Source of the DNA: Variovorax sp.
GTDB lineage: Bacteria; Pseudomonadota; Gammaproteobacteria; Burkholderiales; Burkholderiaceae_C
Reading direction: 5' to 3'
Assembly (NCBI GenBank): GCA_031376455.1
Contig: JANMDU010000058.1
Span: 45,388-109,387, forward strand
DNA: 64,000 bases
How positions within the stretch are numbered: the first letter of the stretch is position 1; each line of letters opens with the position of its first letter. This document shows positions 4,491 through 62,230 of the stretch, piece after piece. Both the position numbers and the translations under genes were made by a program. Under the pieces are notes generated by a model that was given only the letters and a program-made list of their open reading frames with translations, did no database searches and was not told the DNA's origin.

Positions 4491-4590
4491 GAACACGGAA
4501 GTCACGAAAGTAGGACGGAAGACACAGAAAACGGGACGCATTTTTCGTGCCTTCCGTGAAGTTTCCGTGTTTTCCGTGTTTTCCGTGTTC
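4491..4590. repeat. Family-2 palindromic element (CACGGAA type)
   Basis: Ends GAACACGGAA / TTCCGTGTTC; ~10-nt internal units. Confidence 0.85.
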
Positions 4591-4613
4591 TCCTATCACC
4601 CCGAAGAAAAATC

Positions 4614-5396
4614 ATGAGCAAGAAAATTGGTGACGTCATCCTTGACGTGCAAAACATCTCACTCGCCTTCGGCGGCGTGAAGGCGCTGTCTGATATCAGC
4701 TTCAATGTGCGTGAGCATGAAGTGCGCGCCATCATTGGGCCGAACGGCGCAGGTAAAAGCTCTATGCTGAACTGCATCAATGGCGTGTACACGCCACAGC
4801 AAGGCTCGATCACATTTCGTGGGCAAACGTTCAAGCACATGGATTCGCACCAAGTGGCCAAGATGGGCGTGGCGCGTACTTTTCAAAATCTCGCGCTCTT
4901 CAAAGGCATGAGCGTACTGGACAACATCATGAGCGGGCGTAATTTGCGCATCAAAAGCAATATCTTCATGCAAGCGCTGCGCTGGGGCCCCGCTGAGCGC
5001 GAAGAAAATGAACATCGTGCGAAGGTCGAAGAGATCATTGACTTTTTAGAAATTCAGGCTTACCGTAAAACGCCGGTGGGTCAATTGCCTTACGGTTTGC
5101 AAAAGCGCGTTGACCTTGGCCGTGCTCTCGCCATGGAACCCCAAGTGCTCTTGCTCGATGAGCCGATGGCCGGCATGAACATCGAAGAAAAACAAGACAT
5201 GTGCCGCTTCGTGCTCGATGTGAACGATGAATTCGGTAAGACGGTGGTGTTGATCGAACATGAAATGGGTGTGGTGATGGATATTTCAGACCGCGTGGTC
5301 GTGCTTGATTACGGCAAGAAGATTGGAGATGGCACGCCTTCGGAAGTGCGCAACAGCCCTGAGGTAATCAAGGCGTATCTAGGAACGGGGCACTAG
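4614..5396 (+). CDS. ABC transporter ATP-binding protein, LivG-like
   Basis: Walker A GPNGAGKS, LPYGLQKRV, LLLDEP. Confidence 0.93.
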   Translation: MSKKIGDVILDVQNISLAFGGVKALSDISFNVREHEVRAIIGPNGAGKSSMLNCINGVYTPQQGSITFRGQTFKHMDSHQVAKMGVARTFQNLALFKGMSVLDNIMSGRNLRIKSNIFMQALRWGPAEREENEHRAKVEEIIDFLEIQAYRKTPVGQLPYGLQKRVDLGRALAMEPQVLLLDEPMAGMNIEEKQDMCRFVLDVNDEFGKTVVLIEHEMGVVMDISDRVVVLDYGKKIGDGTPSEVRNSPEVIKAYLGTGH

Positions 5397-5397
5397 C

Positions 5398-6327
5398 ATG
5401 GGGTTCTTTCTCGAAACTCTACTTGGCGGCCTGATGGCGGGCATGCTGTATTCACTGGTGGCGCTCGGCTTTGTGTTGATCTTCAAAGCATCAGGCGTGT
5501 TTAACTTTGCGCAAGGTGCGATGGTGCTCTTCGCAGCATTGGCCATGGCACGATTCGCAGAGTGGTTCCCGCAGTGGACGGGGATTGAGAACAAGATCGT
5601 TGCCAATCTGTTTGCCTTTGCAGTAGCTGCAGTGATCATGTTTATCGTGGCTTATGTGATTGAGCGCTTGGTGCTGCGGCATTTGGTCAATCAAGAAGGC
5701 GCGACCTTGCTGATGGCTACTCTGGGCATCGCTTATTTTCTCGATGGCCTCGGCCAGACGCTTTTTGGCAGCGCGATTTACAAGATCGATATTGGTATGC
5801 CCAAAGAGCCGATCATGGCGTTTCAAAATACGTTTCAAGGCGGCATTTTGATCAGCCAAGAAGATTTGATTGCTGCATGTATTGCAGCAGGGCTGGTCGC
5901 GATGCTCTCGCTGTTTTTCCAAAAGACGACCACCGGACGAGCGCTCCGAGCTGTGGCGGATGACCATCAAGCTGCGCAATCAATTGGCATTCCGCTGAAC
6001 CGCATTTGGGTGATTGTGTGGTGCGTGGCGGGTATTGTCGCTTTGGTCGCGGGCATGATTTGGGGCAGTAAATTGGGCGTGCAGTTTTCGCTCACGACGG
6101 TCGCATTGCGGGCGTTGCCCGTTGTGATTTTGGGTGGCTTAACTTCCGTGCCCGGCGCAATTATTGGCGGGCTGATCATCGGTGTGGGCGAGAAGCTCTC
6201 TGAGGTGTATCTCGGCCCCATGGTGGGCGGCGGGATTGAAATTTGGTTTGCGTATGTGTTGGCTCTTGTTTTCTTGCTTTTCAGGCCGCAAGGTTTGTTT
6301 GGCGAGAAGATTATTGATCGCGTTTAG
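5398..6327 (+). CDS. Branched-chain-amino-acid-type ABC permease, LivH-like
   Basis: GVFNFAQG, GRALRAVADD motifs; multiple TM segments. Confidence 0.92.
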   Translation: MGFFLETLLGGLMAGMLYSLVALGFVLIFKASGVFNFAQGAMVLFAALAMARFAEWFPQWTGIENKIVANLFAFAVAAVIMFIVAYVIERLVLRHLVNQEGATLLMATLGIAYFLDGLGQTLFGSAIYKIDIGMPKEPIMAFQNTFQGGILISQEDLIAACIAAGLVAMLSLFFQKTTTGRALRAVADDHQAAQSIGIPLNRIWVIVWCVAGIVALVAGMIWGSKLGVQFSLTTVALRALPVVILGGLTSVPGAIIGGLIIGVGEKLSEVYLGPMVGGGIEIWFAYVLALVFLLFRPQGLFGEKIIDRV

Positions 6328-6351
6328 TCGGCCGCACAAGGAATAAGAATC

Positions 6352-7428
6352 ATGTTCTACAGAGAAAACGGTCAGTTCAAAACCAGTTACCGCGCCGACA
6401 GCCAGATCTTTGGCATCACGCAAGATCGCTACGGCATCGCCTTGCTGCTTCTTGCTGCTTTTATCGCTGTGCCGATGTTTGCCAGCGACTATATGTTCAA
6501 GGCGATCCTAGTGCCTTTTCTGATCCTCTCGCTGGCTGCGATTGGCGTGAACATTCTCGTAGGCTATTGCGGGCAAATCTCACTAGGCTCAGGCGCATTT
6601 ATGGCAGTCGGCGCCTATGCGGCGTATAACTTTTTTGTGCGCGTGGATGGTATTCCACTGATTGCAGCCCTCTTGCTAGGTGGTACGTGTGCTGCATTCG
6701 TTGGTGTGTTTTTCGGCATACCGAGCCTGCGAGTACGAGGCTTGTATTTGGCGGTCGCAACGCTTGCTGCGCAGTTCGTTTGCGACTGGGCTTTTCTGCG
6801 CATCAAATGGTTTACCAACAACTCCACCTCGGGCTCTGTGTCGGTCGCTGATATGAGCATCTTAGGTTGGAGCATCAACAGCCCGATGGATAAATATTTG
6901 TTTTGCCTTGGGATGGTGTGTGTGTTTGCGCTGCTGGCTAAAAACTTAGTGCGCTCGGCGATTGGCCGCGAGTGGATGGCGATTCGGGATATGGATGTGG
7001 CAGCAGCGGTGATCGGCATTCGCCCGATGTATGCCAAGTTGTCCGCCTTCGCTGTGAGCAGTTTTATTGTGGGTGTGGCGGGCGCGATGTGGGGCTTTGT
7101 GTATCTGGGCTCATGGGAGCCAGCTGCTTTCAATATTGATCGCAGCTTTCAATTGCTCTTTATGGTGATCATTGGCGGTATGGGCTCGATCATGGGCAGC
7201 TTTTTTGGCGCGGCGTTTATCGTGATTTTGCCAATTTTTCTCAACCAGTTCTTACCATTTTTGGGCAACTTGGTTGGCGTGACGATATCTACAGCAGGCA
7301 TCGCACACAGCGAAATCATGATTTTTGGTGCATTGATTGTGTGGTTTTTGATTGTGGAGCCGCATGGGCTGGCGAGGCTGTGGAGCTTGGGCAAACAGAA
7401 GCTGCGCATTTGGCCATTTCCGCATTGA
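6352..7428 (+). CDS. Branched-chain-amino-acid-type ABC permease, LivM-like
   Basis: GYCGQISLG, GREWMAIRD, IIGGMGSI motifs. Confidence 0.92.
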   Translation: MFYRENGQFKTSYRADSQIFGITQDRYGIALLLLAAFIAVPMFASDYMFKAILVPFLILSLAAIGVNILVGYCGQISLGSGAFMAVGAYAAYNFFVRVDGIPLIAALLLGGTCAAFVGVFFGIPSLRVRGLYLAVATLAAQFVCDWAFLRIKWFTNNSTSGSVSVADMSILGWSINSPMDKYLFCLGMVCVFALLAKNLVRSAIGREWMAIRDMDVAAAVIGIRPMYAKLSAFAVSSFIVGVAGAMWGFVYLGSWEPAAFNIDRSFQLLFMVIIGGMGSIMGSFFGAAFIVILPIFLNQFLPFLGNLVGVTISTAGIAHSEIMIFGALIVWFLIVEPHGLARLWSLGKQKLRIWPFPH

Positions 7429-7553
7429 GGCCACATTGATACCTTATGAGAGAAAAATGGCCAGGTTGGGCGTGCTCGCAAACACCTAGGCTGATTCAAA
7501 TTGGTGAGCGTTGAAATGTTTGTGTATTTATCTTTTTATTTAGGAGACTTCAA

Positions 7554-8891
7554 ATGAAACTTCGTCAACTCACAGCAGCCGTCTTGGTTGCAGCCTCAGC
7601 GCTCGGCGCCACGGCTTTATCTACTTCGGCCATCGCGCAAGAAAAAGTGCAGTTTTTCCCCAGCTTGACGGGCCGCACTGGGCCAGTCGCGCCTAATGCC
7701 ACACCGTTTGCCAACGGCTACTGGGATTACATGAAGCTCGTCAACGAGCGCGGTGGCATCAACGGCGTGAAGACGCTGGTTGAAGAATGCGAGACGGCTT
7801 ACGCCACAGATCGCGGCGTCGAGTGCTACGAGCGCTTGAAGGGCAAGCATGGCGGCGCAACCGTGTTTCAGCCCTTGTCCACCGGCATCACCTTCGCGCT
7901 GACTGAGAAAGTGCCGGGCGACAAAATTCCATTGATTACTTCTGGCTATGGCCGCAGCGATGCAGCTGACGGCAATATGTTCAAGTGGAATTTTCCACTG
8001 ATCGGTCATTACTGGGTCGCTGGCGATACCGTGCTGCAACACGTGGCCAAGCAAGCCGGCGGCTGGGACAAATTGAAGGGCAAGAAAATTGGCGTGGTCT
8101 ACCACGACAGCCCATTCGGCAAAGAGCTGCTGCCGATCATCAATGAGCGCGCAGCGATGCATGGCTTCACGATTCTTCCATTCCCAGTTGCTGCACCTGG
8201 AGTCGAGCAAGGTGCAACATGGCTGCAAATTCGCCAGCAGCGCCCGGATTACGTCGTGATGCAGACCTGGGGTGTGATGACAGCCACGGCCATCAAAGAA
8301 GCTGTGGCCAAGGGCTATCCGCGTGAGCAGATGTTTGGTACTTGGTGGTCTGGCGCTGAGCCAGATTTGAAAGATGTGGGCGCGGCTGCTAAAGGTTACA
8401 GCGCTGTGATGATGCAGCATGGCGCGGAACCTGGCTCTGATGTGGTGAAAGACATCTTGGCCAAAGTGCATGGCAAAAACGCTGGCACGGGCCCCAAAGA
8501 TGAAGTCGGATCTGTGCTCTATATGCGCGGCGTGGTCGGCGCGATGCTCTCGGTAGAAGGCGCGCGTACAGCGCAAGAGCGCTTTGGCAAGGGCAAGCCT
8601 GTGACGGGCGAGCAAGCACGCTGGGGCTACGAAAATTTGAACTTGACGCAAGCCAAGCTCGATGCACTCGGCTTTAAAGGCGTGATGCGCCCCGTCTCCA
8701 CCAGCTGCGCCGATCACATGGGCTCGGCTTGGGCGCGCGTGCATACATGGGACGGCGCGAAGTTCTCTTGGTCTTCAGATTGGCTGCAAGCCGACAACGC
8801 GATCATTCGCCCACTCGTGAAAGCTTCGGCTGATCGTTATGGTACTGAGAAAAAACTTAGCCGCCGCGAAGCCAGCGATTGTGGTTCCTAA
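7554..8891 (+). CDS. ABC transporter substrate-binding protein (Liv/PBP1 type)
   Basis: Signal peptide; RTGP, GGING, EECETAY PBP1 pattern; within the ABC cluster. Confidence 0.9.
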   Translation: MKLRQLTAAVLVAASALGATALSTSAIAQEKVQFFPSLTGRTGPVAPNATPFANGYWDYMKLVNERGGINGVKTLVEECETAYATDRGVECYERLKGKHGGATVFQPLSTGITFALTEKVPGDKIPLITSGYGRSDAADGNMFKWNFPLIGHYWVAGDTVLQHVAKQAGGWDKLKGKKIGVVYHDSPFGKELLPIINERAAMHGFTILPFPVAAPGVEQGATWLQIRQQRPDYVVMQTWGVMTATAIKEAVAKGYPREQMFGTWWSGAEPDLKDVGAAAKGYSAVMMQHGAEPGSDVVKDILAKVHGKNAGTGPKDEVGSVLYMRGVVGAMLSVEGARTAQERFGKGKPVTGEQARWGYENLNLTQAKLDALGFKGVMRPVSTSCADHMGSAWARVHTWDGAKFSWSSDWLQADNAIIRPLVKASADRYGTEKKLSRREASDCGS

Positions 8892-8990
8892 TCGGAACCC
8901 ACCCCCTGAGCCGCTAACGCGTCTTCCCCCTCTGCTGCGCGAGGGGGACACCGCCAGCCGACTGGCAAAGCCAGATCGGCGGCGGTTGCT
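8883..8990. repeat. GC-rich multi-hairpin, REP-like, between SBP and livF
   Basis: GGTTCC/GGAACC, TCCCCCTC/GAGGGGGA, nested CCGCC.GCCGA-CTGGC-aaa-GCCAG-.TCGGCGGCGG. Confidence 0.7.
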
Positions 8991-9071
8991 GGGAACACAG
9001 CTAGAGCAGGATTCTCCTGCTCTCAAATCACAAGGTCGCGTGCGATCTTGTGATTTGAGAAAGCTCACACC

Positions 9072-9920
9072 ATGACCACTCCCACAGCTGCTGAGGCAAG
9101 CAATATCGTCCTCAATGTCAACGGCATTGAGGTGATCTACAACCACGTGATCTTGGTGCTCAAGGGCGTGTCGCTGCAAGTGCCGCAGAGCTCGATTGTG
9201 GCGCTGCTCGGCGGCAATGGCGCGGGCAAGACGACGACCTTGCGCGCTGTATCTAACCTTCTCTCCGGCGAGCGAGGCGCAGTCACCAAGGGCAGCATTG
9301 AGCTGCGAGGCGAGCGCATTGAAAATCTCACGCCGGCGGATTTGGTCAAGCGCGGCGTGGTGCAGGTGATGGAAGGGCGGCATTGTTTTGCTCACCTCAC
9401 GATTGAAGAGAATTTGCTCACCGGCGCTTACACCGTGAAAAACAAAGCGCAGATTGCCGCAAATTTGGAGAAGGTCTACAACTACTTTCCGCGCTTGAAG
9501 ACGCGCCGCACTAGCCAAGCGGCCTACACCTCTGGCGGCGAGCAACAAATGTGTGCGATTGGCCGCGCGCTGATGGCCAATCCAACGATGGTGCTTCTCG
9601 ATGAGCCATCGATGGGTCTGGCGCCGCAGATCGTGGAAGAGGTGTTCAACATCGTGAAAGATTTGAACCAAAAAGAAAAGACGACTTTTCTTCTTGCCGA
9701 GCAAAACACCAACATGGCACTGCGCTACTCGGATTACGGCTACATCTTGGAATCCGGCCGCATCGTGATGGACGGTAAAGCTGCCGATCTCGCGTCGAAT
9801 GAAGATGTGAAAGAGTTCTACCTGGGTGTGGGCAAATCGGCTGATGGCGAAGAAGCTGGTAGCCGCAAGAGCTTCAAAGATGGCAAGAGCTACAAGCGCA
9901 GGAAGCGTTGGTTGGCGTAG
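9072..9920 (+). CDS. ABC transporter ATP-binding protein, LivF-like
   Basis: GGNGAGKTT, SGGEQQM, LLDEPSMGLAP. Confidence 0.93.
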   Translation: MTTPTAAEASNIVLNVNGIEVIYNHVILVLKGVSLQVPQSSIVALLGGNGAGKTTTLRAVSNLLSGERGAVTKGSIELRGERIENLTPADLVKRGVVQVMEGRHCFAHLTIEENLLTGAYTVKNKAQIAANLEKVYNYFPRLKTRRTSQAAYTSGGEQQMCAIGRALMANPTMVLLDEPSMGLAPQIVEEVFNIVKDLNQKEKTTFLLAEQNTNMALRYSDYGYILESGRIVMDGKAADLASNEDVKEFYLGVGKSADGEEAGSRKSFKDGKSYKRRKRWLA

Positions 9921-9932
9921 TGTCCAACAAAC

Positions 9933-10000
9933 AAGATTTTTAAACGAAATGAGTAGTTAGCCGGCGTATCTGCTGCGCAAATTGCTATTAAATTTATAGT
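9933..10000 (+). repeat. Family-1 element, intergenic
   Basis: gtagttagccggcgtatctgctgcgcaaattgctattaaatttatagt. Confidence 0.85.
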
Positions 10001-10027
10001 GAATAAGATGATCGCAGGAGTGATGCA

Positions 10028-11308
10028 ATGACGGACTTTTTTGACGCACTGGAGGCGCGAAGCTCCATGGAGCGCGAAGCTGCACTCATGGCCGCGCTGC
10101 ATACACAAATTGCACATGCGCAAAAGCACACTGCTGCTTTCGCTGAGATTTTGAAGGGCGTGGATGCTGCTGCAATCACCAGTCGCACGGCGCTCGCCAA
10201 GCTGCCGGTGACGCGCAAAACGCAATTGCAAGAACGCCAAAAAGCAGCGCACTCTGCAGGCAGTGATGTGTTTGGCGGCTTCTCTAGCCTCATACGCAAG
10301 AGCGGCTCTGGCAAGGATTCAGGCATGGGACGTATCTTTTCCAGCCCTGGCCCGATCTACGAGCCCGAAGGAAAGAGCGCAGACTATTGGCGCGCAGGCC
10401 GCGCCGTCTTCGCTGCGGGCTTTCGTGCAGGCGATCTGGCGCACAATGCATTTAGCTACCACATGACGCCTGGCGCCTACATGATGGAGAGCGGCGCACA
10501 CGCGGTGGGTTGCACTGTTTTCCCCGCTGGCACAGGGCAAACGGAGCAGCAATTGCAAGCCATGGCTGAGCTGCAACCTGATGGCTATTTAGGCACGCCG
10601 AGTTTCCTCAAAATCTTAGTGGAAAAAGCCCATGAAGCGAATCAAAAATTAAGCCTCAAAAAAGGCTTGGTGAGCGGCGAGGCCTTCCCTCCCAGCTTGC
10701 GCGATTGGTTCACTGAGCGCGATATGCATATTTACCAGTGCTACGCCACAGCTGATCTCGGCTTGATTGCTTACGAGACTGCAGCCAGAGAAGGCTTGAT
10801 CCTCGATGAAGGCGTGATTGTGGAAATCGTGCGCCCAGGCACGGGCGATGTGGTGCCGGAAGGCGAAGTGGGCGAATTGGTCGTGACGTCGCTCAATCCC
10901 ATCTACCCGCTGATTCGTTTCGGCACCGGCGATTTATCCGCTGTGCTGCCCGGCACTTGTCCCACGGGCCGCACGAATACACGCATCAAAGGCTGGATGG
11001 GGCGCGCCGATCAAACCACCAAAATTCGCGGCATGTTTGTGCATCCGGCTCAGGTGGCCGAAGTCGTCAAGCGTTTCCCAGAAATCACGAGAGCCCGCCT
11101 TGTGGTCAGTGGCGAGATGGCCAATGATCAAATGCTGCTCAAAGTAGAAACAACCCATATAGGCAAGCTTGACAACACAGCTTTCCAAGAAAAAATCGCG
11201 CATGCACTGCGAGACGTTACTAAGCTTCGCAGCGATGTGCAGCTGCTACAAATCGGTAGCCTGCCCAACGACGGCAAGGTGATTGAGGATGTGCGGAGTT
11301 ATCAGTAG
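10028..11308 (+). CDS. Phenylacetate-CoA ligase family protein (PaaK-like)
   Basis: SSPGP, QCYATADLG, RFGTGD, GRAD motifs. Confidence 0.88.
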   Translation: MTDFFDALEARSSMEREAALMAALHTQIAHAQKHTAAFAEILKGVDAAAITSRTALAKLPVTRKTQLQERQKAAHSAGSDVFGGFSSLIRKSGSGKDSGMGRIFSSPGPIYEPEGKSADYWRAGRAVFAAGFRAGDLAHNAFSYHMTPGAYMMESGAHAVGCTVFPAGTGQTEQQLQAMAELQPDGYLGTPSFLKILVEKAHEANQKLSLKKGLVSGEAFPPSLRDWFTERDMHIYQCYATADLGLIAYETAAREGLILDEGVIVEIVRPGTGDVVPEGEVGELVVTSLNPIYPLIRFGTGDLSAVLPGTCPTGRTNTRIKGWMGRADQTTKIRGMFVHPAQVAEVVKRFPEITRARLVVSGEMANDQMLLKVETTHIGKLDNTAFQEKIAHALRDVTKLRSDVQLLQIGSLPNDGKVIEDVRSYQ

Positions 11309-11310
11309 TT

Positions 11311-11379
11311 GCTACTGATTTAATAGCGCTTTGCGCAGTGAATACGCCGGCAAACAGCCGAAAAGGCTTAAAAAATCAG
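11311..11379 (-). repeat. Family-1 element between convergent genes; overlaps the rhodanese stop
   Basis: Reverse complement: ggctgtttgccggcgtattcactgcgcaaagcgctattaaatcagtagc. Confidence 0.88.
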
Positions 11380-11921
11380 TTCAGAGCCATCCTGACGGGC
11401 GAATCACGCTCTAGCAACGCGCTCGTACGCACGCGGCTGCCGGCCATGCGAGAAGAGCTTGCAGGCGCATCAAAGGAAACGAGATACTGCGGTACGCGTG
11501 GGCGAGATACAGTCTCTGTCGTCAGTCCATGCCCGCGCAGAGTCCATTCTTGTACGCCGCCAACCAGCCAAAGGACGCGACCCGAAGTGACCACAGCGAG
11601 GCGCTCCCACAAAGCCTTCGCGTTCGCATCGCCTGCATCGCCCATCACGAGCACGGTGCGCGAGCTGTCAATGCCAGCGTTTGCTAGCAAAGCAGCCAAG
11701 TTTTGCAAAGGCAATGACGCGGCATCGGCGGGAAGCGATGCTGCCTGCGCTAAGTGACCTAGGGCAAACGCATCAGCGCCGCGCACATCCACCACATACG
11801 CGCCTTGCGCCACAGCGCTTTGCGCATCATCAGCAGACACGGCAGACTGCTGGCCAGCGTGAACCGGCGCGATCAGCAAAAATAAAAGAAAAGCAGCCCA
11901 GATCAAGCGAATATTTTTCAT
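11376..11921 (-). CDS. Exported rhodanese-like domain protein
   Basis: Signal peptide; VVDVRGADAFALGHL and LVGGVQEW rhodanese patterns. Confidence 0.75.
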   Translation of the reverse strand: MKNIRLIWAAFLLFLLIAPVHAGQQSAVSADDAQSAVAQGAYVVDVRGADAFALGHLAQAASLPADAASLPLQNLAALLANAGIDSSRTVLVMGDAGDANAKALWERLAVVTSGRVLWLVGGVQEWTLRGHGLTTETVSRPRVPQYLVSFDAPASSSRMAGSRVRTSALLERDSPVRMALN

Positions 11922-12128
11922 AAGAAAACAGACTTTAGAGGCAGGGCGACATGCCGTCCAATACAGAGTTGTCAGATGCTCATGGCTTAAAGATATAAAG
12001 CGATAAGCCCATGATTCATATGGGATTTCGGGTAAGTCCTAGGGCTTGAAGAGTGGTTAACACGTAGCCCAAATAGCGTTTTGCCGCGTTAATATGTTGC
12101 AAGTCTTTTTTATTTCTTGGAGAAACCT

Positions 12129-13130
12129 ATGACTCTGTTTAATCGCCGCCTTACCCTCGTCGCAGCTTGCGCGGCTGCTATGGCAGCCGCCATGCCCGCA
12201 ACTGCGCAAGATTTCCCGATCAAAGACAAGCCGATCACCATCGTGGTGCCGTTTGCAGCGGGCGGCCCGACCGATCGCGTCGCACGCGATTTGGCTTTTT
12301 CACTGGCGAAGCCTTTGGGTGCGACCGTGGTGGTCGACAACGCCGCTGGCGGCCCTGGCGGCTTGATTGGTGCGAGCAAAGTGGCCAAAGGCACGCCCGA
12401 TGGCCACATGCTACTCGTGCATCACATCTCGATGGGCGTCTTTCCATCGCTCGTGCGCAATTTGCCATTCAACGTGCAAACAGATTTTGAATATTTGGGC
12501 ATGATTAACGAAGTGCCCATGACTTTGATTGGCCGCACCAGCTTGCCCGCCAACAATTTTGCCGAGCTACGCACATGGGCCAATGCCAACAAAGGTAAGA
12601 TTAATTTGGCTAACGCTGGCATCGCCTCTGCATCGCATCTGTGCGGCATGCTCATTCAAACCGCCCTCGGGGTGGACATGACAACCGTGCCCTACAAAGG
12701 CACAGCGCCAGCGATGAATGATTTGCTGGGCGGCCAAGTGGATTTGATGTGTGATCAAACCACCAACACCTCTGGGCAAATTGAAGGCAAGAAAGTCAAA
12801 GCGTTCGGCGTGACGACCGCTAAGCGCTTGACTACGCCTGCTCTGAAAGACTTGCCAACGCTGCAAGAAGCCGGTTTGAAGGATTTCCAAGTCGGCATTT
12901 GGCATGGCCTGTATGCACCCAAAGGCACTCCGCCTGCCGTGCAGAAGAAAATCAACGATGCTTTGCAGATGGCTCTAAAAGATCCTGAGTTCATCAAAAA
13001 GCAAGAAGCACTTGGCGCGGTGATCTTCACAGACAAGCGCGTGGAAATGGCGGATCACAAGCGCTTTGTGGCCAGTGAAATTGCCAAATGGGCGCCAGTG
13101 ATCAAAGCCTCTGGTGTTTATGCAGACTAA
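12129..13130 (+). CDS. Bug/TctC tripartite tricarboxylate transporter substrate-binding protein
   Basis: [24 protein letters not shown]; GGAG SD before ATG 12129. Confidence 0.93.
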   Translation: MTLFNRRLTLVAACAAAMAAAMPATAQDFPIKDKPITIVVPFAAGGPTDRVARDLAFSLAKPLGATVVVDNAAGGPGGLIGASKVAKGTPDGHMLLVHHISMGVFPSLVRNLPFNVQTDFEYLGMINEVPMTLIGRTSLPANNFAELRTWANANKGKINLANAGIASASHLCGMLIQTALGVDMTTVPYKGTAPAMNDLLGGQVDLMCDQTTNTSGQIEGKKVKAFGVTTAKRLTTPALKDLPTLQEAGLKDFQVGIWHGLYAPKGTPPAVQKKINDALQMALKDPEFIKKQEALGAVIFTDKRVEMADHKRFVASEIAKWAPVIKASGVYAD

Positions 13131-13155
13131 TGCCTGCTGAATAGCGTTCATCATC

Positions 13156-13184
13156 AAAAGCCACCTCAGTCAGGTGGCTTTTTT
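13156..13184 (+). terminator. Rho-independent terminator
   Basis: AAAAGCCACCT-cagtc-AGGTGGCTTTTTT downstream of the Bug gene. Confidence 0.8.
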
Positions 13185-13345
13185 CATGGGCGGCGCGGGT
13201 GTTCACCGATGCGCGTGCGATTTGGCTGCGTAATACTTTGCAGCATGCCTACGCTGCGTCTTATCGATTCGATCACTGAATTATCTTTACAGGATGTGGG
13301 CAGCACATTGCTTAGTGACGATCACAAACACATCAGAGATTTATC

Positions 13346-14398
13346 ATGACACCAATTTTCTCATCATTTTTTAAGCAAAAGAGGCCTTTTGCCGGCATAT
13401 ATACTGCGTGGAATGCTACTATTTTCATAGCAGTTATTATGGCACTACAACTCGGCCTATCAATTACTGCCTTTGCGCAAGCGTGGCCCAGCAAGCCAGT
13501 GCGCATCGTTGTGCCCTTCGCAGCGGGCGGCACGACCGATATCTTGGCGCGAGCGATTGCGCCTGAATTACAAAGAGCTTTTGGGCAAGCCTTCGTCGTC
13601 GAAAACCGCGCTGGAGCGGGGGGCAATGTGGGCGCGGAGCTTGTCGCAAAGAGCAATGATGGCCACACGATCCTCATGGGCACGGTAGGAACGCACGGCA
13701 TCAACAAAGCACTTTATCCCAGCTTGCCCTTCGATCCTGTCAAAGATTTTTCTCCAATCACTGTGGTGGCCTATGTGCCCAATGTGATGGTGATGAATGC
13801 AGAGAAAGCGCGCACTTTGAATATCAACTCAGTACAAGATTTCATCAGGTACGCCAAAGCCAACCCCGGTAAGCTGAATATGGCCTCCAGCGGCAACGGC
13901 ACCTCGATTCACTTGGCTGGCGAGCTGTTCAAAAGCATGGGCGATGTGTTCATGGTGCATTTCCCGTATCGCGGCTCAGGCCCTGCCCTGCTGGATTTGA
14001 TGGGCGGCAGCATGGATTTGATGTTTGACAATTTGCCTTCCGCTTTGCCGCAGATCAAAGCAGGAAAATTGAAAGCCTTGGCTGTGACGAGCAGCGCTCG
14101 CTCGAGCGCTCTGCCCGATGCCCCCACGGTCGAACAAGCAGGTGGCGCGGCGATGAAGGGTTTTGAAGCCAGCAGTTGGTTTGGCTTGCTCGCGCCTTCA
14201 TCCATGCCGGCCGCTCAGGTGCAACGCTTGCAACAAGAAACCGCCAAGGCGCTGGATCGCGCTGAAGTCAAAGACAAACTCGTCGCCCAAGGCGCATTGC
14301 CCGGGGGAAATAGTCCCGCAGATTTTGCCAAACACATTGATGCAGAAATCGCCAAATGGGCGAAAGTAGTCAAGGCATCTGGCGCGAAGGTCGATTAA
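13346..14398 (+). CDS. Bug/TctC family substrate-binding protein
   Basis: [31 protein letters not shown]. Confidence 0.92.
13364..13431 (+). repeat. Family-1 element in the Bug N-terminus
   Basis: ggccttttgccggcatatatactgcgtggaatgctactattttcatagc. Confidence 0.75.
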
Positions 14399-14410
14399 AA
14401 CGAACCCTCT

Positions 14411-14716
14411 TCAAACACCCCAAGTGATGGGAGTTTTGGCTTTCGCGCTGCGTTCCATCAGCAGCACCAGCGGCCAAGCGCGGGTGCGCAGGCTGATGCG
14501 CTTATTGCCTTTTTCTTCGGGCTCATCTGAGGTTGCTCCCGAAGACTCTTCCGAGGCAATTGCTGCTTCAAGTGCGGCTTGAGCAGCCACCATTTGTTCG
14601 GGCAACAAAATTCCTTTGGCGTCAATGCCTTTGCCCATGATCTCCAAGACTTGTCGGCCTGTAGCCTCCAGCATGATCACATCGCCGCTGGCATCAGATT
14701 TGAATTTGTAGAGCAT
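14411..14716 (-). CDS. DUF1840 family protein
   Basis: MLYKFKS..GDVIML and ISLRTRAWPL pattern, recognised from memory. Confidence 0.78.
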   Translation of the reverse strand: MLYKFKSDASGDVIMLEATGRQVLEIMGKGIDAKGILLPEQMVAAQAALEAAIASEESSGATSDEPEEKGNKRISLRTRAWPLVLLMERSAKAKTPITWGV

Positions 14717-15405
14717 CAGACTTTACCTTTGTTGACTGGGGGCAGCTCATCGCCAAGCGAAACCGGGCGTGTGGCGGGGAATTCAGAAGCGCCAAAGCTG
14801 GAGTTGTTCACGGGTATCGTCTCAATAAATCCAGTGATCGGTGCGGCTACCTCCATGGCATCAGAGCCCGGCGCGCGGGGCTCTGGCGAAAGCGGCGCAT
14901 CCGTCTTGCGCTGCGACAGGGAAGCACGCAACTGATCGTAGGCTACAGCACGCGAACTGACCGTCTCAGGCCACCACGCTTGGCTGCTTGAAAGCTCATC
15001 ATGCGGGCAACCCGCATCGGGCAAGATGCGCCAGAGCACCGCTCGCACAGCGCGTGCTACATTCCTATCGTCCTCGCGAATGCGCTTGAGGACTTGCTGC
15101 TCAAATGCGCTGGATTGTGCCCAGAGCTGTTCATCCCAAACACGCAAGCTCACCTGTAATTGAAAGTAAGCATTATCGTCGTCCGCAATCGTGACGACCT
15201 CGTAGCTCAACCAGTGGACGGGAATACCAAAGAAGCTGGCTGTGCGAAATGCTGCTGCCCGCACGATCTCTCTGGCAGCTTTCACATTCTGGAGTTCGAC
15301 GTTGAGCGGTATCGGCTTGCCTTCCATGTCAAAGTAGCCTGTTGAAGGCGAGTCTGCATCAGCTTGATCAGGAGTTTTACCGAGGATTGTTTTAAGCCAG
15401 CTCAC
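14716..15405 (-). CDS. Hypothetical protein; probable GTG start at 15405 (ORF open to 15546)
   Basis: Long ORF with globular core and low-complexity tail; its TGA overlaps the DUF1840 ATG. Confidence 0.7.
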   Translation of the reverse strand: MSWLKTILGKTPDQADADSPSTGYFDMEGKPIPLNVELQNVKAAREIVRAAAFRTASFFGIPVHWLSYEVVTIADDDNAYFQLQVSLRVWDEQLWAQSSAFEQQVLKRIREDDRNVARAVRAVLWRILPDAGCPHDELSSSQAWWPETVSSRAVAYDQLRASLSQRKTDAPLSPEPRAPGSDAMEVAAPITGFIETIPVNNSSFGASEFPATRPVSLGDELPPVNKGKV

Positions 15406-15550
15406 TGTTTTTATCTCTGAGTTTTGATTTGATTGATTGTAGTGAAGGGAAAAATGGGCACAGTGACCGCTCAACCCAAAAATTGACCGCTGAGCGATTG
15501 GTCTTGACACGCCGTAGATCAGGGCAGCCGCCACATCGTTTGACAAAAGA

Positions 15551-15570
15551 ATAGTTTAGGTTTAAATTAT
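15551..15570. promoter_or_regulatory. Candidate MarR operator
   Basis: ATAGTTTA-ggtt-TAAATTAT (1 mismatch), 2 nt before the abmA ATG. Confidence 0.5.
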
Positions 15571-15572
15571 TC

Positions 15573-17990
15573 ATGATGTTTTCAAATTCCATTCCCCCGG
15601 CTCAGCTATCGATCTTGTGTATTGGCGGCGGTCCTAGCGGCTTGTATTTCGCACTGCTGATGAAGAAGCGTTTTCCCGCGATGCGCGTGATCGTGACCGA
15701 GAGAAATAAAGCGTTTGATACCTTTGGTTGGGGCGTGGTGCTCTCTGATCAGACGCTTGGGAATCTGAAAATCGCCGATCCCGTCAGCGCGCAGCTGATT
15801 GGCGATGCGTTTAACCACTGGGATGACATTGAGGTGTTTTTCAAAGGCCGTAGCATGCGCTCCACCGGTCATGGCTTCTGTGGGATTGGCAGAAAGCATT
15901 TGCTCAATATTTTGCAAGAGCGCTGCCAAGAATTAGGTGTGGAATTGGTGTTTGAAGTCGATGTGCAAGATGACCAAGCACTCGCCGCGCAATATGGCGC
16001 GGATCTCGTGATTGCGAGCGATGGCCTCAACAGCCGCATCAGAACACGTTATAGCGCTACCTACAAGCCAGATATTGACACACGCCGCTGCCGCTTCGTC
16101 TGGCTCGGCACGAAGAAAACCTTTGATGCGTTTACCTTTGCGTTTGAGAAAACAGAACACGGCTGGTTTGCCGCGCATGCTTATAAATTCAATGAAGACA
16201 CATCGACATTCATTGTGGAGACACCACACGAGGTGTGGAAGGCGCACGGCTTGGATACGATGGAGCAGCCCGAAGCCATCGCCTTTTGCGAGACATTGTT
16301 TGCCAAGTATTTAGACGGCAACGCGCTGATGAGCAACGCCACGCATCTGCGCGGCAGCGCGATCTGGATACAGTTTCCGCGCGTGGTGTGTAGCAATTGG
16401 GTACACACGGCTGATGTGCAAGGCAAGCACGTTCCCATCGTGCTCATGGGCGATGCAGCGCACACGGCGCACTTCTCGATTGGCTCGGGCACCAAGCTCG
16501 CGCTAGAAGATGCGATTGATCTGGCTGACGAGTTCGTTTTGCATGCCAGCTTAAAAGATAAATCAGGCGTTACCCGGCAAGAAATAAACGAAAGAAGCTA
16601 TGCTTTTGATAGTGAAGCGATTGCGCACATCCTGCAAGCCTATCAAGCACGCCGCAGCTTGGAGGTGTTGAAAATCCAAAACGCCGCGCGCAATTCCACA
16701 GAATGGTTTGAAAATGTGGAGCGCTATGCGGGCATGGAAGTCGAGCAGTTTTACTACAGCCTGCTCACGCGCAGCCAACGCATCAGCCACGACAACCTGC
16801 GTCTGCGCGATGGCAAATGGCTGCTGGGCTATGAGAGCTGGTTTGGCAAACGCCCGAATGCCAAGCATCCCGTGCTACCCATGCTCACACCTTACACATT
16901 GCGCCAGGTGCAGCTCAAAAATCGCATTGTCGTGAGCCCGATGGCGACTTACAGCGCAGTGGGCGGCGAGCTGCAAGATTTTCATTTGGTACACCTTGGC
17001 GCGCGAGCCCTCGGCGGCGCGGCGCTTGTGATGGTGGAGATGACATCGCCCACGATGGACGGAAGAATCACACCCGGCTGCCCGGTGCTGGAGACTGACG
17101 CGCAGCAAGCCGCACTCGCTCGCATCGCACAGTTTTTCAAAACTAATGGCACAGCCAAGCTCGGTTTGCAGCTCGGCCACAGCGGCCCCAAAGGCTCTAC
17201 GCAGCTCGGCTGGGAAACGACAGATGAGCCCTTAGCCAGCGACAACTGGCCACTGATCGCGGCCAGCGCTGTGCCGTATGGCGCGCAAAACCAAATCCCA
17301 AAAGCCATGACGCGCGCCGACATGGACCGTATCACCGCTGCTTTCGTAGCCAGCACGCATCGCGCAGAAGCAGCGGGTGTGGAATGGCTCGAATTGCATT
17401 GCGCCCACGGCTACCTGCTCTCCAGCTTCATTTGCCCGCTCACAAATCTGCGCAGCGATGAATACGGTGGCTCTCTGGACAATCGTTGCCGCTATCCACT
17501 CGAAGTGTTCAAAGCTGTCCGTGCCGTGTGGCCACAAGGTAAACCCGTCAGCGTGCGCATCTCCGCCCACGATTGGGCAGAGGGTGGCAACACCGATGCC
17601 GATGCTGTTGAAATCGCACGCCTGTTTCAAGCCGCTGGCGCAGACATGATCGACGTATCGAGCGGCCAAACCACGCGCGCTGCCAAGCCCATTTATGGCC
17701 GCATGTACCAAGCGCCCTTTGCAGATCGTATCCGCAACGAAGTGGGCATCGCCACGATTGCTGTGGGCGCGATCACCGAGGCCGATCATGCCAACAGCAT
17801 CATCGCCGCAGGCCGCGCTGATCTCTGCGCAATTGCCCGCCCGCATCTGGCTGACCCCGCCTGGACACTTCACGCCGCCGCACAGCAGCAAAGCCGAGAT
17901 GTGCAATGGCCATTGCCCTACATAAGTGGGCGCGATCAGCTGTATCGCGAGATGGCTAAAACCCGTTTGATTGATGCTACTGGTCGCTGA
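15573..17990 (+). CDS. abmA: Bifunctional 2-aminobenzoyl-CoA/salicylyl-CoA monooxygenase-reductase (FAD monooxygenase + Old Yellow Enzyme domain)
   Basis: GGGPSG FAD motif, GDAAHTAHFSIGSGTKLA; C-terminal NRIVVSPM, HCAHGYL OYE motifs; operon context. Confidence 0.88.
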   Translation: MMFSNSIPPAQLSILCIGGGPSGLYFALLMKKRFPAMRVIVTERNKAFDTFGWGVVLSDQTLGNLKIADPVSAQLIGDAFNHWDDIEVFFKGRSMRSTGHGFCGIGRKHLLNILQERCQELGVELVFEVDVQDDQALAAQYGADLVIASDGLNSRIRTRYSATYKPDIDTRRCRFVWLGTKKTFDAFTFAFEKTEHGWFAAHAYKFNEDTSTFIVETPHEVWKAHGLDTMEQPEAIAFCETLFAKYLDGNALMSNATHLRGSAIWIQFPRVVCSNWVHTADVQGKHVPIVLMGDAAHTAHFSIGSGTKLALEDAIDLADEFVLHASLKDKSGVTRQEINERSYAFDSEAIAHILQAYQARRSLEVLKIQNAARNSTEWFENVERYAGMEVEQFYYSLLTRSQRISHDNLRLRDGKWLLGYESWFGKRPNAKHPVLPMLTPYTLRQVQLKNRIVVSPMATYSAVGGELQDFHLVHLGARALGGAALVMVEMTSPTMDGRITPGCPVLETDAQQAALARIAQFFKTNGTAKLGLQLGHSGPKGSTQLGWETTDEPLASDNWPLIAASAVPYGAQNQIPKAMTRADMDRITAAFVASTHRAEAAGVEWLELHCAHGYLLSSFICPLTNLRSDEYGGSLDNRCRYPLEVFKAVRAVWPQGKPVSVRISAHDWAEGGNTDADAVEIARLFQAAGADMIDVSSGQTTRAAKPIYGRMYQAPFADRIRNEVGIATIAVGAITEADHANSIIAAGRADLCAIARPHLADPAWTLHAAAQQQSRDVQWPLPYISGRDQLYREMAKTRLIDATGR
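16546..16613 (+). repeat. Family-1 element (diverged), in-frame in abmA
   Basis: ggcgttacccggcaagaaataaacgaaagaagctatgcttttgatagt. Confidence 0.6.
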
Positions 17991-18000
17991 GCGCCACTTA

Positions 18001-18112
18001 GAACACGAAAGCCACGTAAATGACACGGAACACACAGAAGAAGAACGAAATGCATTTTTCTTTTCTCGGTTTTTTTTGTGATTTCCGTGCAACCTTCGTG
18101 CCTTCCGTGTTT
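18001..18112. repeat. Family-2 palindromic element (CACGGAA type)
   Basis: gaacacgaaagccacgtaaatgacacggaa...ttccgtgcaaccttcgtgccttccgtgtttc. Confidence 0.85.
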
Positions 18113-18132
18113 CCAATCTAAAAACGAAAATC

Positions 18133-18618: not shown

Positions 18619-18623
18619 AAATC

Positions 18624-19478: not shown

Positions 19479-19497
19479 CATGCGCAACTGTTATTTA

Positions 19498-19581
19498 GAA
19501 TGCAAAAGACGCGAAAAGAAAAAAGCGATGCTTGGTTTTCTCTTTTGCGGCTTTTGCGAAATTTCTGCGCCTTTTGCGTTC
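19498..19581. repeat. Family-2 palindromic element (CGCAAAA type)
   Basis: gaatgcaaaagacgcgaaaag...cttttgcggcttttgcgaaatttctgcgccttttgcgttc. Confidence 0.8.
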
Positions 19582-19610
19582 AACTCGCTGCGCGCTCAAG
19601 GAGCCTCAGC

Positions 19611-20819: not shown

Positions 20820-20835
20820 GAAATTTCCACAAGAG

Positions 20836-22467: not shown

Positions 22468-22473
22468 TCAAGG

Positions 22474-23963: not shown

Positions 23964-23972
23964 CAGCGTAGT

Positions 23973-25636: not shown

Positions 25637-25717
25637 GAACGCAAAAACCGCAGAAAAATCCCAATTGATTTTCTGAATTTTTTGCGTCTTCTGCGTACCT
25701 CTGCGTCTTTTGCGTTT
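25637..25717. repeat. Family-2 palindromic element (CGCAAAA type)
   Basis: gaacgcaaaaaccgcagaaa...tttgcgtcttctgcgtacctctgcgtcttttgcgttt. Confidence 0.82.
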
Positions 25718-48162: not shown

Positions 48163-48687
48163 ATGGCCTCCGTCAACAAAGTCATTCTCATGGGCAACTG
48201 CGGGCGCGATCCCGAGATTCGTTATTTGCCCTCTGGCGGCGCGGTGGCCAATATCTCGATTGCCACATCCAGCAAACGCAAAGACAAAACCTCTGGCGAG
48301 ACGATTGAAGATACGCAGTGGCATCGCGTGACGTTCTACGACCGCTTGGCCGAGATCGTGGGCGAGTATGTGAAAAAGGGCAATCCTGTTTATGTCGAAG
48401 GCCGCTTGAAATACGGCAAATACACCGACAAAGACGGCATTGAGCGCAACACGGTAGATGTGGTGGCCACCGAGATGCAATTGCTTGGCGCTCGCCAAGG
48501 CGCGGGCTCGCCGGATGAAGGCGGCGGCGGTGGCGGTGGTGGTTACTCCCGCGCGCCTGCTCCAGCTTCGCGCCCACCCGCAGCCCGCCCAGGTTCTATG
48601 CCTGCCAGCTCTGCGTCTTCCGGTGCAGCGCCCAAAGCCAAGGCAGGCACTGGCTTTGACGACATGGATGACGATATTCCGTTTTGA
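48163..48687 (+). CDS. ssb: Single-stranded DNA-binding protein
   Basis: [11 protein letters not shown]-rich linker, acidic DDDIPF tail. Confidence 0.98.
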
Positions 48688-48718: not shown

Positions 48719-48811
48719 GAACACGGAGAGCACGGAAGTTGCACGAAAGACACCAAAAAAGAGAGATGCTTTTTCCGTGCTTTTCGTGAAATATTTGTGA
48801 CTTCCGTGTTC
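48719..48811. repeat. Family-2 palindromic element (CACGGAA type)
   Basis: gaacacggagagcacggaagttgcacgaaag...ttccgtgcttttcgtg...cttccgtgttc. Confidence 0.85.
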
Positions 48812-48834: not shown

Positions 48835-49719
48835 TTGAATACCCGCCTAGTCCTTTATCTCGATCTGATTCGTTGGAATCGCCCGGCTGGCTGGCTGCTG
48901 CTGCTGTGGCCGACGCTCTCTGCTTTATGGATTGCAGCCGGCGGCTTCCCAGGATGGCATTTGATCATCGTGTTTACTTTAGGCACGATCCTTATGCGTA
49001 GCGCTGGCTGTTGTGTCAACGATGTTGCCGACGCAGATTTTGACAAGCATGTGAAGCGCACCGCTGGGCGACCTGTCACCAGTGGCAAAGTAAGCAAAAA
49101 AGAAGCGCTACTGCTTGGCGCTTGCCTATCTCTGCTGGCTTTCGGCTTCGTGCTCACCACGAATTTGCTCACGGTGCTGTATTCGTTTGCCGCGCTAGCG
49201 ATCACGCTCGCGTATCCCTTCGCCAAGCGCTTCGTTGCGATGCCGCAAGCCGTGCTCGGCGTCGCATTCAGCTTCGGGATTCCGATGGCCTTCGCTGCAG
49301 TATCGGGCGGCAACTCGCTAAACGAGTTGCAAGGCGGTGTATCCAAACTCGCTTGGATTTTGCTGCTTGGTAATCTCTTCTGGGTGCTTGCCTACGACAC
49401 GGAATACGCCATGGTGGATCGGGATGATGATCTGCGCATCGGCATGAAAACATCGGCCATCACGCTCGGGCGCTTTGATGTAGCCGCTATCATGCTTTTT
49501 TATGGTGTTTATATGCTTTTTTGGCTGATAGCCGGCATAGAATCTGCGCAAAATGCTATCAAATTAGTAGTATTGATCAGCATGAGTGGGCAAATCTTTT
49601 GGCATTGGCAGCTCATCCGCACGCGCTCGCGCGAGGGCTGTTTCAAAGCGTTTCGACTCAATCACTGGCTCGGTTTGACGCTGTTTATCGGCATCGTTGC
49701 AGCCAGCTTGGTCAAGTAA
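48835..49719 (+). CDS. ubiA: 4-hydroxybenzoate octaprenyltransferase
   Basis: [32 protein letters not shown]. Confidence 0.95.
49504..49571 (+). repeat. Family-1 element, in-frame in ubiA
   Basis: ttttttggctgatagccggcatagaatctgcgcaaaatgctatcaaattagtagt. Confidence 0.82.
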
Positions 49720-60311: not shown

Positions 60312-60755
60312 ATGGAATTATTCAAGAGCATAGCGGCAAAAGGGATGACAACAGCCGCCGCTGCCTCGTCTGCTTTTCCTGCACGATTGACCACGAAAGC
60401 TGTGGGAGACAGCGGCGAAGAACTGGCATTGCGCTTCCTGCTCAAAAATGGTTTGCAGCTCATTGCGCGCAATTTCAAAACGCCGGGACGCGGCGGCGGC
60501 GAGGTAGATCTGATCATGCGCGCAGCCGATAGCACGCTGGTCTTCGTGGAAGTGCGCCAGCGCAAGAGCGCAAGCCATGGCGGCGCAGCGGCCAGTATCG
60601 GCACACAGAAGAAGCGGCGCATTATCTATGCCGCGCAGCATTACATCAGCCATCTTGTGCGCATGCCGCCTTGCCGCTTTGATGTGATCGCGCTCCATGG
60701 CGAGGGCGCAGAGGCGAAGATAGACTGGCTGGTCGCAGCTTTTGATGCATCCTGA
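60312..60755 (+). CDS. yraN: YraN/UPF0102 family protein; start uncertain
   Basis: G..GE..A, RN, GEVDLI, FVEVR, RFDVI; synteny. Confidence 0.9.
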   Translation: MELFKSIAAKGMTTAAAASSAFPARLTTKAVGDSGEELALRFLLKNGLQLIARNFKTPGRGGGEVDLIMRAADSTLVFVEVRQRKSASHGGAAASIGTQKKRRIIYAAQHYISHLVRMPPCRFDVIALHGEGAEAKIDWLVAAFDAS

Positions 60756-60849
60756 TGCAAATATGGCGTAAAAATCTCAGTTTGCACCCACAAATACAAG
60801 AAACTCTGCTATCAATTTAGTATCATTGCGGCAAGACCAATTGCCTACC

Positions 60850-61455
60850 ATGCTCGAACAACGCATTGAAAAAAATTTCATCGACAGCGCCGACTTAACC
60901 TACCAAGCTGCACTGGTGTTAGGCAAACCGATCGCACAGGCCACCGAAGCGCTGCTCGCCTGCGTCACCAATGGTGGCAAGGTGCTGATCTGTGGCAATG
61001 GCGGTTCGGCTGCGCAGGCGCAGCACTTTGCCGCTGCGTTCGTTGGGTGCTATGAGCGCGAGCGCCCTGAACTTGCCGCGATTGCTTTGACGAGCGACAG
61101 CGCCATCTTCAATGCGATGAGCCATGACAATGGGTTCGAGCTGATTTTTGCGAGGCAACTGCGCGCCCTCGGTACGGGGGGCGATGTGCTCGTGGCACTC
61201 TCGGCCAGCGGTAATTGCGCCAATGTGATCAAAGCCATCGAAGTGGCGCAAGAGCGCGAGATGATCGTGATCGCGCTCACGGGAAGTCAAGACGGGAAAA
61301 TAGGCGGCAAGATCGGTGCGATGCTATCTGAGACGGATGTGCATATTTGTGTGCCGCATGCTCGCGCATCGCGGATTCAAGAGGTTCATCTGCTCGCGCT
61401 GCATTGCTTGTGCGACGGAGTAGATGCCATGTTGTTGGGTGATCAGGAGAATTGA
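60850..61455 (+). CDS. SIS-domain protein, GmhA/DiaA family
   Basis: CGNGGSA, IQEVH; lies between yraN and BON like E. coli diaA. Confidence 0.88.
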   Translation: MLEQRIEKNFIDSADLTYQAALVLGKPIAQATEALLACVTNGGKVLICGNGGSAAQAQHFAAAFVGCYERERPELAAIALTSDSAIFNAMSHDNGFELIFARQLRALGTGGDVLVALSASGNCANVIKAIEVAQEREMIVIALTGSQDGKIGGKIGAMLSETDVHICVPHARASRIQEVHLLALHCLCDGVDAMLLGDQEN

Positions 61456-62123
61456 TGAACACTATGAATTTAATAGCACGTCGCGCAGTATTAATGCCGG
61501 CTACTGCTCTAGTAGGATCATATTTATTGGCCGGCTGTGTACCTTTGGTGATAGGTGGCGCAGTCGTGGGTGGCACGCTTGTTGCCACAGATCGTCGAAC
61601 TTCCGGCGCGCAGTTGGAAGATGAGGGCATTGAGTTGCGCAGCACCAACCGCTTGCGTGAAGCTTTCATCGAACGGGTGCATATCAATGCCAACAGCTAC
61701 AACCGCCAAGTGTTGCTGACAGGCGAAGTACCCACAGAAGCCGATAAAGTGCGGGCGCAAGAGATCGTGAGTCGCGTGGAAAATGTACGCAGCATCGTCA
61801 ATGAACTCGCCGTCTTGGGCAACACATCCCTGACTTCGCGCTCCTCCGATTCGCTCGTCACGGGCCGCGTGAAAGCAGGCTTTGTGGACGCGAAAGATTT
61901 ATATGCCAACGCCTTTAAAGTCGTCACCGAGCGCGGCACGACATATCTGATGGGCCGCGTCTCTCAGCGAGAAGCCAACCGCGCTACTGATATCGCCCGT
62001 ACCACGCCCGGCGTACAACGCGTCGTGCGCGTGCTGGAGATCATCAGCGAAGAAGAGTTGCAGCGCGCGCTCCCGCAACCCGCTAAGCCAAGCACTTCTG
62101 CGCCCACGAATCCCTCCAATTAA
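61452..62123 (+). CDS. Dual-BON-domain lipoprotein (YraP/DolP-like)
   Basis: Lipobox LAGC; DRRTSG...D, VLLTGEV, YLMG.V. Confidence 0.9.
   Translation: MMNTMNLIARRAVLMPATALVGSYLLAGCVPLVIGGAVVGGTLVATDRRTSGAQLEDEGIELRSTNRLREAFIERVHINANSYNRQVLLTGEVPTEADKVRAQEIVSRVENVRSIVNELAVLGNTSLTSRSSDSLVTGRVKAGFVDAKDLYANAFKVVTERGTTYLMGRVSQREANRATDIARTTPGVQRVVRVLEIISEEELQRALPQPAKPSTSAPTNPSN
61461..61527 (-). repeat. Family-1 element, in-frame in the BON lipoprotein signal peptide
   Basis: actatgaatttaatagcacgtcgcgcagtattaatgccggctactgc. Confidence 0.75.
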
Positions 62124-62154
62124 CTGGCCTGAGCTATTGGCAAGGCGTCTTTAA

Positions 62155-62230
62155 GAACGCGCAAGACACACAAGATACCTTCTCGGTTTTTTCTGTGACT
62201 TCCGTGCAAATCTCCGTGATTTCCGTGTTC
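62155..62230. repeat. Family-2 palindromic element (CACGGAA type, left arm eroded)
   Basis: ...ttctgtgacttccgtgcaaatctccgtgatttccgtgttc. Confidence 0.78.

Follow-up and report, generated by a model that had tools for sequence, protein, structure and literature searches.

Dispersed hairpin repeats with arms of tandem 8-nt units at co-directional gene junctions of a Variovorax genome

Seven long palindromes lie between genes in a stretch of 64,000 nt from Variovorax sp. (GCA_031376455.1, contig JANMDU010000058.1; family Comamonadaceae), here called the window, and they raise the question of what kind of sequence recurs at such junctions and how it came there. A sequence-only reading had described them as a mobile hairpin element. 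For the present analysis the whole assembly, a draft of 3.40 Mb in 160 contigs with 54% G+C, and congener genomes have been scanned for the same architecture. The palindromes are probably copies of a non-autonomous dispersed hairpin repeat, similar in kind to the ERIC, Correia and REPIN sequences, with modular arms and co-transcribed within operons. In the following, G000 denotes this genome, the other G-numbers denote congener genomes and C-numbers contigs; the sequence type of the arm unit is called a dialect, and CACGGAAG, CGCGAAAG, CGCAGAAG and CGCAAAAG have been distinguished among the congeners.

The seven palindromes were taken for a family from their own sequences, and many further copies (about 100) have now been identified in the genome. 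A first scan of the whole assembly with a regular expression returned 78 elements. An arm profile, built from 168 arms, gave 213 arm matches, which form 94 paired elements (a plus-strand arm followed by a minus-strand arm within 300 nt) and 25 unpaired matches; the order of the two arms is constant, and on inspection the unpaired matches possess a degenerate partner arm or stand at a contig end. A looser detector of unit clusters found 84 elements of the CAC type and 7 of the CGC type, 91 in all, and none in the reversed genome, while the pattern read backwards had no match in 41 genomes. The repeats occupy about 4% of the co-directional gene junctions in the genome, and the one deposited record that was inspected does not annotate them. 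At least 17 contig ends are located in or beside a copy (e.g. C6:23, C49:14, C52:2, C28:76, C69:12572 and C92:7812), so that the family contributes to the fragmentation of the draft assembly.

The arms are built from four 8-nt units, C-R-C-R-R-A-A-R, which start at positions 0, 9, 20 and 29 and give a double-unit period of 20 nt; the profile-aligned consensus is A-GAA-CACGGAAG-N-CACRGAAR-YTN-CACGGAAG-N-CACRGAAAA. The rhythm of about 9-10 nt claimed at the outset is close to the spacing of 9/11/9 nt measured on 188 arms. The element shows the following characteristic features: (i) four CAC triplets and an A three bases after each of them, invariant to 97-99%; (ii) remaining unit positions that are nearly all A or G, C being avoided outside CAC; (iii) two arms inverted around a variable loop, A-rich and then T-rich, which differs in every copy; (iv) an A+T-rich flank of about 8 nt on either side. 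The whole arms thereby form terminal inverted repeats with the ends GAACAC...GTGTTC. A single arm consists of purine-rich tandem units, with neither self-complementarity nor a GTAG motif, and GCGTC is confined to the CCGGACGC dialect. The number of units per arm varies from 2 to 6, as illustrated by the duplicated double unit of the copy at C144:29209 and by the right arm of the window copy at 4491, which has five. The predicted fold is an imperfect hairpin of about 40 bp with a mean of -47 kcal/mol, compared with -19 kcal/mol for shuffled sequences (z about -9), and its stability is equal on the sense and the antisense strand. In a few copies (C2:23667-23789, C123:10146-10269 and C144:140355-140493) unique flanks lengthen the palindrome by 10-15 nt, for example with tcgttcatagaaata before and tatttctatgaacga after the element, and it looks as if the element stood at the tip of an older hairpin.

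The position of the repeats relative to genes was evaluated for 83 classifiable elements by a binomial test, using a simple set of gene calls based on open reading frames (ORFs; 2,893 genes, 87% coding). Co-directional junctions hold 73 of the elements (88%), convergent and divergent ones five each, against a background of 72/14/14% by count and 62/18/20% by length; the co-directional excess is significant by count (p = 3e-4) and by length (p = 1e-7). The positional bias proposed from the window, where all seven copies indeed fall outside coding regions, with flanking ORFs of the same orientation, is thus retained when the further copies are counted. None of the elements overlaps the 3' end of a gene: the median distance from the stop codon to the element is 21 nt (interquartile range 13-26), and that from the element to the next start 27 nt (19-40). 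The flanking genes belong to housekeeping operons, such as sox, etfBA with acyl-CoA dehydrogenase, ABC transporters of the liv and dpp types, ribH-nusB and purA. Integron attC sites, an idea arising from the co-directional placement, were rejected, given ends that depart from RYYYAAC/GTTRRRY and neighbours with housekeeping functions.

A strong hairpin directly after stop codons might also represent a transcription terminator or attenuator between genes. This function is highly improbable, however, since the 3' flank is TTAAW, with no U-tract or T run, a terminator scan of positions 4000-23900 calls none of the four elements there, and the elements are rare between convergent genes (5/83, p = 0.02) and enriched in operons that need expression of the downstream gene. 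Within the elements, the sense strand carries about one third as many Shine-Dalgarno-like motifs as the antisense strand (GGAGG 6 against 19, GGAG 8 against 24, GAGG 9 against 29; p = 0.015-0.002), and control words are balanced. In Ramlibacter lithotrophicus, RNA-seq contigs enter a copy from both flanking genes; these contigs are directionless, and DNA carry-over is possible. We infer that the elements are co-transcribed with their host operons. The most likely effect on the host would be an intercistronic stem-loop in the mRNA, and an effect on mRNA stability or processing is plausible. Such stem-loops between cistrons may alter decay or processing, or may merely be tolerated, and selection would hold the elements off the stop codon and the ribosome-binding site, and Shine-Dalgarno-like motifs off the sense strand.

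The comparison of orthologous junctions has revealed sites at which certain congeners carry an element and others carry none. At 4491 the site is empty in G002, G004 and G009, in which the genes overlap in ATGA, and occupied in six genomes by different dialects: CACGGAAG in G000, CGCGAAAG in G006, CGCAGAAG in G001 and G008, and CGCAAAAG in G003 and G007. At 18001 a copy is present in G012, while G011 and G014 have an empty site; the 19498 site is empty in G011, G013 and G010, with a stop-start gap of 2 nt in G011 and G013. At 22474 a CGC-type copy is present in both G000 and G014, at equal distance from the stop codon, a CAC-type copy in G011 and a copy of the CGCGAAAG type in G006, and the site is empty in G010. 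For the 25637 element, G014 has an orthologous copy with the full 4+4 units, and a CAC-type copy is also present in G006 at the 48719 site; the CGCGAAAG dialect is found at three sites in G006. Orthologous copies have kept the core pattern, while the loops and the R positions have diverged and some units have been lost. Empty orthologous sites contain a spacer of 0-19 nt only, with no seed sequence.

The last result bears on another explanation, in which the repeats are palindromic microsatellites made in place through replication slippage of units of about 10 nt and hairpin-templated strand switching, with no transposition. The varying number of units per arm (including the duplicated double unit and the five-unit arm), the copy-specific loops with no target-site duplication, and the flanks that sometimes lengthen the palindrome would all be expected from such a process. 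Nevertheless, it is a very doubtful origin: empty sites offer no seed, and the 8-nt unit, the terminal GAAC and the 9/11/9 rhythm would all have had to arise alike about 100 times independently, which is very unlikely.

The distribution of the repeats is equally uneven. The strict CAC pattern has 99 arm matches (both strands) in G000, 59 in G011, 22 in G006 and 0-8 in the other congeners, and no matches in 26 other genera. With a degenerate pattern run on one genome per species, the architecture has been found in Ramlibacter, metagenome-assembled genomes labelled Variovorax, Brachymonas, Acidovorax, Polaromonas and unclassified Comamonadaceae; most of these matches are of the form CCGGACGCAGAAG... 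In a separate, even sample of the family, matches occur in 2 of about 201 genera. The phage and plasmid collections yielded one match, on a 2.5-Mb Variovorax replicon, and none on phages or ordinary plasmids. Metagenome contigs over the window were too mixed for clean excision joints.

Species-specific dialects at orthologous sites, together with hundreds of units per genome in inverted arrangement, also recall DNA uptake sequences, which would be accumulated by biased uptake and recombination and often stand as inverted pairs behind genes. Against this, the units are found only as ordered 4+4 arrays with fixed termini, and no stand-alone clusters exist (lone dispersed or in-gene units were not weighed against expectation), so that motifs of this kind are hardly a credible explanation. 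The pattern of gain and loss, the dialect subfamilies and the patchy distribution are in agreement with a non-autonomous, amplifying hairpin element similar in kind to the ERIC, Correia and REPIN sequences. As the CGC copies are partly decayed and shared with distant congeners, and as the CAC type dominates this genome, successive waves of amplification are suggested: an older CGC wave, common to distant congeners, would have been followed by the CAC type. The element would have spread, now or in the past, through a function acting in trans that reads the invariant C.C..A positions.

The interpretation as a mobile hairpin, which the junctions empty in one congener and occupied in another, the range of 0-99 matches among congeners and the patchy occurrence among genera support indirectly, must be set against several contrary observations. 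No target-site duplication was detected, as direct repeats (k = 2-6, offsets 0-6 on either side) were not in excess over shuffled flank pairs. No autonomous copy, no copy with cargo and no transposase or nuclease gene beside or between copies was found, and all arms pair within 300 nt, in a 160-contig draft that is broken at these repeats. No two copies share a loop, the R positions appear to be randomised, and recent bursts of copy-and-paste are therefore not evident. For different dialects to have occupied the same junction, either a strong target preference or conversion in situ would be required. Within-element covariation is absent at the variable columns of the CAC family in this genome (identity 0.578, against 0.614 +/- 0.012 for shuffled partners), and on the sense strand, tested for RNA pairing, G.U is not favoured over A.C (150 against 168). 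RNA runs of this organism were looked for, and none was found. A link to RAYT transposases was also rejected, since the only RAYT of the genome (PF01797, C79:5396-5728) is flanked by unrelated AAATTAAATAGGGTCAGA repeats.

The association with GxxExxY, or PD-(D/E)xK, genes that the sequence-only reading had mentioned is not supported: no YhgA-like PD-(D/E)xK transposase is present in the genome, and the genes beside or between the elements are ordinary housekeeping genes. Among 119 foreign loci, the only recurrent neighbour is a gene for an Atm1-like ABC transporter, apparently at one shared site. The RAYT locus itself (C79:5240-6160) contains a RAYT-like Y1 transposase gene, preceded by three AAATTAAATAGGGTCA(G/C)A repeats in tandem and followed by an inverted copy; in G006 and G012, at the site equivalent to 19498, the REP hairpin of this locus stands in place of the element's right arm.

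Mismatch between the arms is favoured at column 37 (p = 6e-4) and in the central spacer (p = 0.009). The lack of within-element covariation and of a G.U preference means that pairing alone does not explain the conservation. Across dialects, 81 elements from many genomes gave, at the type-defining positions, GC 52, AT 27 and mismatch 2, and AT 44, GC 37 and mismatch 0, respectively; both arms change together between lineage-specific dialects, almost perfectly. Inverted symmetry characterises the family as a whole, and within a family it is the base pattern that is kept, not the pairing. From the invariant C.C..A pattern, combined with arms that do not covary, we infer a sequence-specific partner and an avoidance of perfect long palindromes.

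Such a partner might be a host protein. The units would then be binding sites of a sequence-specific DNA- or RNA-binding protein, nucleoid-organising or regulatory, arranged as two inverted sets of four, with dialects that track its specificity. The invariant C.C..A bases with free R positions and no covariation, the preference for mismatches at column 37 and within the central spacer, the core positions kept in orthologues with diverged loops and variable positions, the genome-specific dialects at several sites (e.g. CGCGAAAG three times in G006) and the double unit every 20 nt, i.e. about two turns of DNA, are all in agreement with this. However, housekeeping junctions that hold a copy in some congeners are empty in others, with the genes abutting; matches are present in just 2 of about 201 sampled genera; two dialects coexist within one genome; copies decay through unit loss; and no candidate protein was found. 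An array of host binding sites is unlikely. The units fit none of the known binding-site consensuses that were compared with them (DnaA box, CRP, PhoB and others).

Within the reading of the palindromes as a dispersed hairpin repeat, a two-part system, composed of the elements and a sequence-specific partner protein other than a RAYT or a classical DDE transposase, can be put forward only tentatively and is itself rather improbable. The partner would read the C-R-C-N2-A units, 9 or 11 nt apart, on both arms; it would co-evolve with about 800 units per genome, and new dialects would overwrite older copies at the same operon junctions. If true, the system would be a long-term association like that of REPINs and RAYTs, but with a partner of a new kind; alternatively, it would be a new system, specific to some Comamonadaceae, that organises the chromosome or mRNA.

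Several known repeat families share part of this architecture. The ERIC (or IRU) sequences of Enterobacteria are imperfect palindromes of about 126 nt in transcribed spacers, often in operons, whose copy number varies greatly between relatives. The present repeats resemble them in size, long imperfect hairpin, intergenic location within operons and uneven copy number, but are set apart by description, with four tandem 8-nt units per arm on a purine-rich strand, no target duplication and a Comamonadaceae host. The Correia (or NEMIS) elements of Neisseria, about 100-150 nt long, have long inverted ends (26-bp terminal inverted repeats), a TA duplication and an IHF site; they are co-transcribed, form RNA hairpins and encode no transposase of their own. 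The length of about 100-150 nt, the long inverted ends and the lack of an own transposase are common to both, whereas in the Variovorax repeats the whole arm is made of repeated units and no duplication is present; here too the separation is one of description. The BOX elements of Streptococcus pneumoniae (boxA-boxB(n)-boxC) are modular, intergenic and co-transcribed. The modular build, the variable number of internal units and the intergenic position are similar; in contrast, the repeats described here are symmetric palindromes of 8-nt units, and the sequences are unrelated. REPIN and BIME sequences are comparable as high-copy intergenic inverted doublets with a long hairpin, no target duplication, persistence at orthologous sites and lineage-specific types. 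Unlike in REP and REPIN sequences, in which each repeat unit is a short imperfect palindrome of 20-40 nt with a GTAG or CGTC tag, the single arm is no palindrome and bears no GTAG tag, and the RAYT is flanked by another repeat, AAATTAAATAGGGTCAGA. Of the features of a MITE, terminal inverted repeats are present, but the target-site duplication was not found. The betaproteobacterial BRE sequences, known also from Comamonadaceae, are about 90 bp long with 69% G+C, tandem and sometimes located inside genes (PMC3110155), and the CGTC-tagged REPs are tagged palindromes with 8-9 bp stems and 4-5 nt loops that occur without transposase (PMC3733652); neither BRE nor the CGTC- or GTAG-tagged REPs fit a hairpin with four-unit arms. 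In the literature searched, the unit strings were met in no paper, and no published description of the family was found.

If the repeats act on mRNA, they would determine, in a way particular to each lineage, how strongly genes within many housekeeping operons are expressed relative to one another (sox, etf, ABC transporters, ribH-nusB, purA). The unusual pattern of invariant bases, free purines and arm covariation only across dialects makes the family a good place to seek a new protein partner of bacterial repeats, and a good system for the concerted evolution of dispersed repeats. The repeats are also relevant to annotation and assembly.

All seven palindromes are present in the window at the positions first assigned to them (Table 1), and their division into two subtypes is confirmed: the CAC type comprises 4491, 18001, 48719 and the right arm of 62155, the CGC type 19498, 22474 and 25637. 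The termini GAACRC...GYGTTC hold for most copies; exceptions are 19498, which starts with GAATGC, 18001 and 25637, which end in GTGTTTC and GCGTTT, respectively, and 62155 with its degenerate left arm. No Rfam family matched in the window.

Table 1. Hairpin repeats in the window and the open reading frame that spans one of them
Feature	Position	Strand	Location or remarks
CAC-type element, 4+5 units	4491..4590		between acyl-CoA ligase-like gene (2519-4474) and ABC ATPase gene (4614-5396)
CAC-type element, degenerate	18001..18113		between flavin oxidoreductase gene (15573-17990) and MarR gene (18133-18618)
CGC-type element, short left arm	19498..19581		between enoyl-CoA hydratase gene (18624-19478) and acyl-CoA dehydrogenase gene
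CGC-type element, long loop	22474..22610		between AMP-binding ligase gene (20836-22467) and RidA-like gene
CGC-type element, left arm cut to 2 units	25637..25717		between minus-strand genes 24616-25644 and TctC gene 25740-26741
CAC-type element	48719..48811		between ssb (48163-48687) and plus-strand ORF 48835-49719
Element with degenerate GAACGCG... left arm and intact CAC-type right arm	62155..62230		between plus-strand ORFs 61452-62123 and 62313-63782
43-codon ORF spanning the whole 4491 element	4486..4617	+	ATG 12 nt past upstream stop; TGA overlaps downstream ATG

Two of the window copies show further local variation. In the strain of a metagenome run, about 1.5% divergent over the contig, two positions in the right arm of the 18001 element (18099 and 18108) are both changed from T to C, turning GTG into GCG; these changes hit the position that separates the CAC from the CGC dialect. 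At the 22474 site, the G010 contig C29, compared with window positions 20733-26200, is 99% identical downstream of the element, 77% identical immediately upstream of it and 94% identical over the upstream gene, and carries a truncated CAC-type copy in place of the CGC type. The step in identity marks either a recombination junction at the element or a contamination of the G010 assembly by a strain close to that of the window.

Translation is not a property of the family as a whole: open frames, and ORFs complete from start to stop, run through the elements about equally often on the antisense and the sense strand (67 against 62 elements with an open frame; 21 against 20 with an ATG), and there is no genome-wide excess of ORFs spanning an element. 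At the 4491 site, all six occupied species (G000, G001, G003, G006, G007 and G008) possess exactly one open ATG-to-TGA frame, of 129-237 nt, which starts at or near the upstream stop and whose TGA overlaps the downstream ATG, despite differing dialects and loop lengths; one or two of the three sense frames and none to two of the three antisense frames are open there. The ORF at this site looks like a locus-specific bridging ORF, which would restore a translational coupling broken by insertion of the element.

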